Source: Escherichia coli (GTDB lineage: Bacteria; Pseudomonadota; Gammaproteobacteria; Enterobacterales; Enterobacteriaceae). From it: 64,000 bases of DNA. Numbering within the stretch: the first letter of the stretch is position 1; each line of letters begins with the position of its first letter. Location of the stretch: the NCBI RefSeq assembly GCF_003334405.1, contig NZ_QOWM01000001.1; one strand, written 5' to 3'. Shown piece after piece: positions 17,018 through 17,262 of this stretch. A model generated the notes under the pieces. The model searched no databases, was not told the origin of the DNA, and worked only from the letters and a program-made list of their open reading frames with translations. The translations under genes and the position numbers were made by a program.

Positions 17018-17112
17018 TGAATAAAACCACGAGTTCCTGGTGTGCCTTATTCGGCCTGCTAGTTCGAATTTAATTTACGGTTTTTATGTGGTTTTAGGGA
17101 TAAACACAAGGA

Positions 17113-17187
17113 TGGTGTCCCCTGCAGGAATCGAACCTGCAATTAGCCCTTAGGAGGGGCTCGTTATATCCATTTAACTAAGAGGAC
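17113..17187 (-). tRNA. argW: tRNA-Arg (CCU anticodon), argW-like
   Basis: 75-nt cloverleaf-compatible sequence on the minus strand (GTCCTCTTAGTTAAATGGATA...CCTAAGG...GGTTCGATTCCTGCAGGGGACACCA) with encoded CCA end. Confidence 0.88.
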
Positions 17188-17262
17188 AATGCGGCATGAG
17201 TATACCCGCTAATGGAGTGCGGGGTAAGTACGCTGCCGCTCGATTGCTTAAACCCTCGCCAT

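Follow-up and report, generated by a model that had tools for sequence, protein, structure and literature searches.

An unoccupied attachment site at the argW tRNA gene in an Escherichia coli chromosome closely resembling K-12

In Escherichia coli K-12 a prophage remnant lies beside the tRNA-Arg gene argW; what, if anything, occupies this gene in a chromosome that is otherwise very similar? We addressed this question in a 64-kb stretch of E. coli DNA (contig NZ_QOWM01000001.1 of assembly GCF_003334405.1; 64,000 nucleotides (nt), hereafter the window), in which argW stands between dsdC and yfdC. This segment is almost certainly an unoccupied bacterial attachment site (attB) at argW, carried on a chromosome backbone almost identical to that of K-12. 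The argW site, its core, its variability and its empty state are already known from the literature.

In K-12 strain MG1655 the gene order is dsdC, torI, yfdT ... yfdG, intS, tRNA-Arg (argW), yfdC, and a CPS-53/KplE1 prophage remnant of about 10.2 kb, running from intS to torI, separates argW from dsdC. BLAST comparison of the whole window with 77 kb of MG1655 returned two blocks: positions 1–17127, which are 100% identical without differences, and positions 17112–64000, which are 99.93% identical, with 10 single-nucleotide polymorphisms (SNPs) and one 24-bp gap over 46.9 kb. The two blocks overlap by exactly 17112–17127, and this overlap is the published 16-bp KplE1 core ATGGTGTCCCCTGCAG, the reverse complement of the form CTGCAGGGGACACCAT in which the 16-nt core was reported (PMC2951348). 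K-12 holds two copies of the core and the window one. In K-12 the copy of ATGGTGTCCCCTGCAG near dsdC stands between the 95-bp spacer, which is that of the window, and prophage DNA; the copy at argW stands between prophage DNA and the remainder of the tRNA gene. The window consists of the bacterial arms of the K-12 left and right prophage junctions (attL and attR) joined at the core. Because the arms match and the blocks overlap exactly at the core, the window is the attB predicted from K-12.

The tRNA gene itself is undisturbed. ARAGORN finds a single tRNA gene in the 64-kb window, a tRNA-Arg with anticodon CCT at 17113–17187 on the minus strand; it scores 63.4 bits (E = 9e-13) against the Rfam tRNA model RF00005, is identical in sequence to K-12 argW and, by both programs, is an intact tRNA-Arg(CCU) gene. 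The distance from the dsdC stop codon to the argW 3′ end (17018–17112) is exactly 95 bp. The features of the site are as follows.

17113–17187, minus strand: argW, tRNA-Arg(CCU), intact, one copy (ARAGORN; Rfam RF00005; same coordinates annotated in a collinear genome).
16076–17017, plus strand: dsdC, left neighbour of the site (open reading frame (ORF) list; annotation of a collinear genome).
17263–18195, minus strand: yfdC, right neighbour of the site (ORF list; annotation of a collinear genome).
17018–17112, no strand assigned: dsdC–argW spacer, 95 bp, 39% GC, the bacterial arm of attB on the dsdC side (junctions in K-12 and other strains).

The dsdC–yfdC interval contains no integrase, excisionase or phage gene. 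Upstream of dsdC lie dsdX and dsdA, and past yfdC lie mlaA, yfdF and fadL (ORF list); the remaining genes of the window are K-12 core genes in collinear order, and the complete E. coli strain B-1109 has the same gene coordinates and annotations as the window through at least 30 kb. Beside dsdC in K-12 and in strains VE-F10, Z1323CEC0010 and 2014C-4423, the spacer begins and ends with the same 30 bp as in the window, and in all four the final 30 bp lead directly into a copy of the tRNA 3′ end. Immediately downstream of dsdC and its stop codon, at 17019–17052, the spacer carries an imperfect inverted repeat (GAATAAAACCACGAG...CTGGTGTGCCTTATTC) that forms a hairpin on the argW strand in an RNA fold; the terminator scan made no call on it, and in lysogens it remains beside dsdC, about 10 kb from argW. 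Consensus scans for promoters and terminators over 16900–17450 found none.

Integrases bind core-type sites in attB and in the attachment site of the element (attP), and strand exchange takes place within the identical core. At such a site, temperate phages and satellites with tyrosine integrases recombine attP with a short core in the tRNA gene; the displaced end of the tRNA gene is replaced by the copy that the element brings, so that the gene stays intact, and the integrated element is then bracketed by a direct repeat of the core. Excision needs a recombination directionality factor, which for KplE1 is TorI (PMC2951348, PMC3509656), and KplE1 has retained a working integrase and excisionase module and is able to excise in vivo (PMC2951348).

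The gene argW carries at least three distinct attachment cores, all of them single-copy and unoccupied in the window.

17112–17127, plus strand: IntS-type core ATGGTGTCCCCTGCAG, 16 bp, attB crossover region (single copy; overlap of the K-12 alignment; published core).
17110–17135, plus strand: longer 3′-end core (GGA)TGGTGTCCCCTGCAGGAATCGAA, that of a P4-like integrase island with GapS6 (repeat in Z1323CEC0010; unoccupied here).
17164–17188, plus strand: 5′ part of the tRNA gene, TTATATCCATTTAACTAAGAGGACA, common to both junctions of Stx2a-type prophages (2014C-4423 and F7386 junctions; unoccupied here).

The IntS-type core matches exactly at 17112–17127, at the 3′ end of argW, where it spans the last 15 nt of the gene plus 1 nt. 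It occurs once in the window, with only the 95-bp native spacer between argW and dsdC; K-12 and strain VE-F10 have a copy at each end of the element. The same core has been published a second time (PMC8787464), and according to the literature the phages Sf6, HK620 and Kapi1 have the same att core as KplE1/CPS-53. The longer core was delimited in strain Z1323CEC0010, in which a 23-bp exact repeat (26 bp with three upstream bases) flanks a 10.7-kb island; this 23–26-bp sequence is found once in the window (up to 8 mismatches allowed in 26). Stx2a-type prophages insert on the other side of the gene, between argW and yfdC. Strain 2014C-4423 matches the window to just beyond the tRNA 5′ end, after which comes a phage integrase gene; in F7386, an O157:H7 strain, prophage DNA on the yfdC side adjoins the 5′ ~25 nt of the tRNA gene, all that this side retains of it. 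The integrase of the prophage on the argW 5′ side is 99.7% identical to those of the Stx2-converting phages 86, PA2 and PA8. In the window the 5′ ~25 nt of argW occur once and run on continuously into the flank on the yfdC side. A single 75-nt tRNA gene thus holds three attachment cores, each of which is implicit in the papers on KplE1, Kapi1, the O157 Stx2a phage and the P4-like satellite.

One database record seemed to join two of these types. The Stx2 phage VT2phi_272 was considered as a possible user of an IntS-type integrase (97.9% match), and this candidate was rejected because a Stx2a-type integrase lies about 400 bp away in the same record; in HQ424691.1 the IntS-like integrase (97.9%) and that of the Stx2a type both fall within 2.8 kb, at positions 4–2756. 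Host DNA is probably part of the record, namely the neighbouring intS-like element at argW and presumably the tRNA gene.

Searches for traces of a former insertion were negative throughout the window. A 15-mer of the tRNA 3′ end (TGGTGTCCCCTGCAG, up to 2 mismatches) and a 25-mer of the same end (up to 3 mismatches) each matched at 17113 only. Scanned on both strands of the whole window, the 16-bp core (up to 4 mismatches) gave a sole extra match, with 4 mismatches and on the minus strand inside yfdC, which we read as chance; the 26-bp core (up to 8 mismatches) gave no further match; and the 25-nt 5′ core (up to 8 mismatches) gave, as its only extra hit, one chance match with 7 mismatches. Both of these chance-level matches fall inside unrelated genes. 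The best local alignment of the 95-bp spacer with the tRNA gene scored 13; shuffled spacers averaged 14.5, and 391 of 500 equalled or exceeded the observed value. A TGGTGTGCC motif in the spacer, at about 17038, was first taken for a decayed att copy and was rejected because it is at chance level. The window contains no second copy of any core, not even a degenerate one.

An earlier, sequence-only reading of this stretch agrees with these results. It had set argW directly between dsdC and yfdC at 95 bp from dsdC, and the coordinates are confirmed; for K-12 it had placed a cryptic prophage, CPS-53/KpLE1, between argW and dsdC, and MG1655 does have about 10.2 kb there. Its statement that no integrase, att duplication or phage gene is present stood up to the mismatch-tolerant scans and to the gene content, and the search for a direct repeat of the tRNA 3′ end yielded no duplicated argW segment or phage remnant. 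That the window represents the empty configuration of a known integration hotspot is likewise upheld, since it equals the attB predicted from attL and attR of K-12.

How common is the empty site? We searched 5426 complete E. coli genomes with a 701-bp probe across the junction, counting as contiguous a match of at least 80% coverage. The contiguous dsdC–argW–yfdC junction is present in 911 of them (16.8%, about one in six), among which are an E. coli B derivative and genomes as divergent as 96.3% identity. Most of the non-contiguous genomes that were sampled lose homology at probe position 311–317, which is the tRNA 3′ end. Junction probes for three types of occupant, taken from occupied genomes, gave the following counts.

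IntS-type integrase adjoining argW: 1893 of 5426 genomes (junction probe).
P4-like integrase adjoining argW: 231 of 5426 genomes (junction probe).
Stx2a-phage integrase on the argW 5′ side: 211 of 5426 genomes (junction probe).

Although only a minority of genomes have it, the empty state is common. The sequence-only reading had treated the junction as one that K-12 does not share, and alignment bears this out, placing it in the 911 genomes and not in K-12; that reading is refined in that the empty allele is a common minority and in that argW has at least three cores rather than one.

Roughly 1,200 genomes are at least 99% identical to the window over positions 5000–29000. Where these 24-kb flanks are ~100% identical, argW is found empty, with a 6.5-kb IntS/TorI element or with a 10.7-kb P4-like island, and such different states on ~100% identical flanks imply that turnover at the site is fast. 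The 6.5-kb element, in VE-F10 (locus L003, 2364–8650), is KplE1-like and has kept intS and torI; as cargo it has a gene for a 653-amino-acid acyltransferase family protein where K-12 has yfdGHI (gtr-like), as if O-antigen-modifying cargo had been exchanged as a unit while the recombination module stayed the same. The 10.7-kb island, in Z1323CEC0010 (locus L004, 2820–13208), sits at the argW 3′ end on a backbone ~100% identical to the window and encodes a P4-like integrase (57.6% identical to P4 Int), a ‘rolling circle replication-associated protein’, GapS6a and GapS6b, and a small serine-type ‘recombinase family protein’. A further arrangement is seen in EC21GDE043 (locus L006, 4251–5464), in which an IS3-family element lies between argW and yfdC and the yfdC end is truncated; this strain additionally has intS at the argW 3′ end.

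No result contradicts our interpretation of the site as empty; three points limit its reach. About 40% of the genomes fall outside the classes of the three junction probes, and some of these are also without the dsdC end altogether. The competence of the window site for integration is presumed from its sequence identity to known sites. ‘Empty’ is also a relative term: in the literature the neighbouring dsdCXA cluster is itself counted as part of a variable argW–dsdCXA island, reportedly described by Moritz and Welch in 2006.

The history of the site is a separate matter from its present state. The sequence is compatible both with a site that was never occupied and with precise excision, which regenerates attB without a scar, and for that reason sequence cannot tell a never-occupied site from one that has lost its element. 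It is possible, although we judge it the less probable history, that a recent ancestor held a CPS-53/KplE1-like element and that precise excision by IntS and TorI cured the strain naturally. The flanks are 100% and 99.93% identical to those of K-12, whose own element is heavily decayed; the KplE1 integrase and excisionase module works and excises in vivo (PMC2951348); and near-identical backbones with several occupancy states imply rapid turnover. Scarless excision, however, means that no sequence feature favours curing over a site that was never filled, and the 10.2-kb CPS-53, the 6.5-kb IntS element and the P4-like island on near-identical backbones would fit an empty ancestor with independent gains equally well. 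The empty state is also found on divergent backbones, down to 96.3% identity. We hold it doubtful, and slightly less likely still, that the window strain specifically descends from a K-12-like CPS-53 lysogen and was cured naturally and recently. If such recent curing did occur, near-identical genomes with four argW states would document turnover on very short timescales, with IntS-type prophage elements and P4-like defence satellites integrating, excising and replacing one another, and this set of genomes would offer a natural system for measuring rates of attB turnover.

Two further origins of the junction are both very improbable. The near-identity to MG1655 and the absence of the prophage with base precision at the att core are what one would expect of an engineered K-12 derivative from which CPS-53 had been deleted, such as a prophage-free or reduced-genome strain. 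That explanation is largely refuted: over 46.9 kb the window differs from MG1655 by ten SNPs and a 24-bp in-frame deletion in fadL; an internal stop interrupts yfcU in K-12 but not in the window; natural isolates of human, pig and chicken origin match window positions 5000–29000 (24 kb) uninterrupted at ~100% identity; and there is no scar or cassette sequence. An assembly that had dropped a prophage from the contig would also give an apparently empty site, and the authors who described Kapi1 report that contig breaks at this locus in draft assemblies hide the tRNA gene and attB (PMC8787464). Yet the identical contiguous junction occurs in 911 complete (closed) genomes, the sequence at the junction agrees to the base with the attB expected from attL and attR, and collapse by an assembler over a 16-bp repeat is implausible. 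An unoccupied attB at argW, whatever its past, is the account that we retain. Because no element is integrated, the strain is a potential recipient for phages that target argW.

For the strain, this means that it is without CPS-53/KplE1 or any other argW-borne element, be it one with gtr-type or acyltransferase genes for O-antigen modification, a Stx2a phage or a GapS6 satellite. The site would be a free landing site for argW-targeting phages, and its state matters little beyond annotation.

Elsewhere in the window, two genes differ from their K-12 counterparts. Relative to K-12, fadL (20850–22166, minus strand) is missing 24 bp (8 codons, in frame) at window positions 21560–21600. Two imperfect 24-bp tandem repeats, TTGCTGAGTTTGGCCAGCAGGAGA and TTGCATAATTTGGCCAGCAACCAA, mark the deletion site, and the window retains the second copy. 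In strain B-1109, fadL has a deletion of equal length with another crossover point, so at least two independent collapses of the repeat have occurred. The fimbrial usher gene yfcU (28471–31116) is an intact 881-codon ORF in the window, with TAC at codon 579 (~30205–30207); in K-12 the codon is TAG, an internal stop, and the annotation lists yfcU as a pseudogene.

The slot between mlaA and fadL is variable. In the window it holds yfdF (19426–20484), which encodes a 352-amino-acid protein of unknown function and lies in a block of 35% GC (19200–20400), compared with 49% for the window; yfdF is absent in EC21GDE043, and O157:H7 F7386 has a hypothetical gene of a different size there. Two kinds of repeat were also recorded. 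A palindromic unit resembling repetitive extragenic palindromic (REP) sequences, CGTAGGTCGGATAAGGCGTT.ACGCCGCATCCG..., occurs in two intergenic copies (39649–39692 and 52509–52552) that are 89% identical and are ordinary E. coli REP elements. A 300-bp direct repeat of 70% identity (56143–56442 and 57146–57445) reflects the paralogy of argT and hisJ, two genes for periplasmic binding proteins.

Among known systems, several use argW. The site called ‘argW’ for the Stx2a prophage of O157:H7 clade 8 is the same tRNA gene as in the window, and the typing term ‘intact argW’ denotes an uninterrupted yfdC–argW side, as in the window (PMC8309913). The integration site of these O157 Stx2a phages lies in the 5′ part of the gene, towards yfdC, and an ‘intact argW’ in O157 still has an intC element at the 3′ end (PMC8309913), whereas the window is free on both sides. 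P4-like satellites with defence systems are known at tRNA genes, and one with GapS6a/b occupies the 3′ end of argW in genomes that match the window at ~100% on both flanks. The window does not carry this island, whose core is the longer one of 23–26 bp. A close counterpart is the attB of KplE1/CPS-53 in K-12, with the same tRNA gene, the same 16-nt core and the same flanking genes (PMC2951348; PMC8787464). K-12 is occupied, with attL and attR around 10.2 kb, whereas the window is unoccupied and has one core and no int or xis gene. The IntS type extends to CUS-3, whose integrase protein has the same sequence as IntS (100% identity). In its state, the window matches the Kapi1-free E. coli KP7 described by Pick et al. 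in 2022 (PMC8787464), which has a single att and in which dsdC and yfdC flank the tRNA-Arg gene. KP7 is a different strain, and the Kapi1 att is written as 17 bp beginning AATGGTG where the window reads GATGGTG, so that only the 16-bp core is common to both. In KP7, deletion of attB abolished integration of Kapi1 at the site: the junction was detected in 0 of 24 survivor colonies, compared with 19 of 20 for the wild type (PMC8787464).
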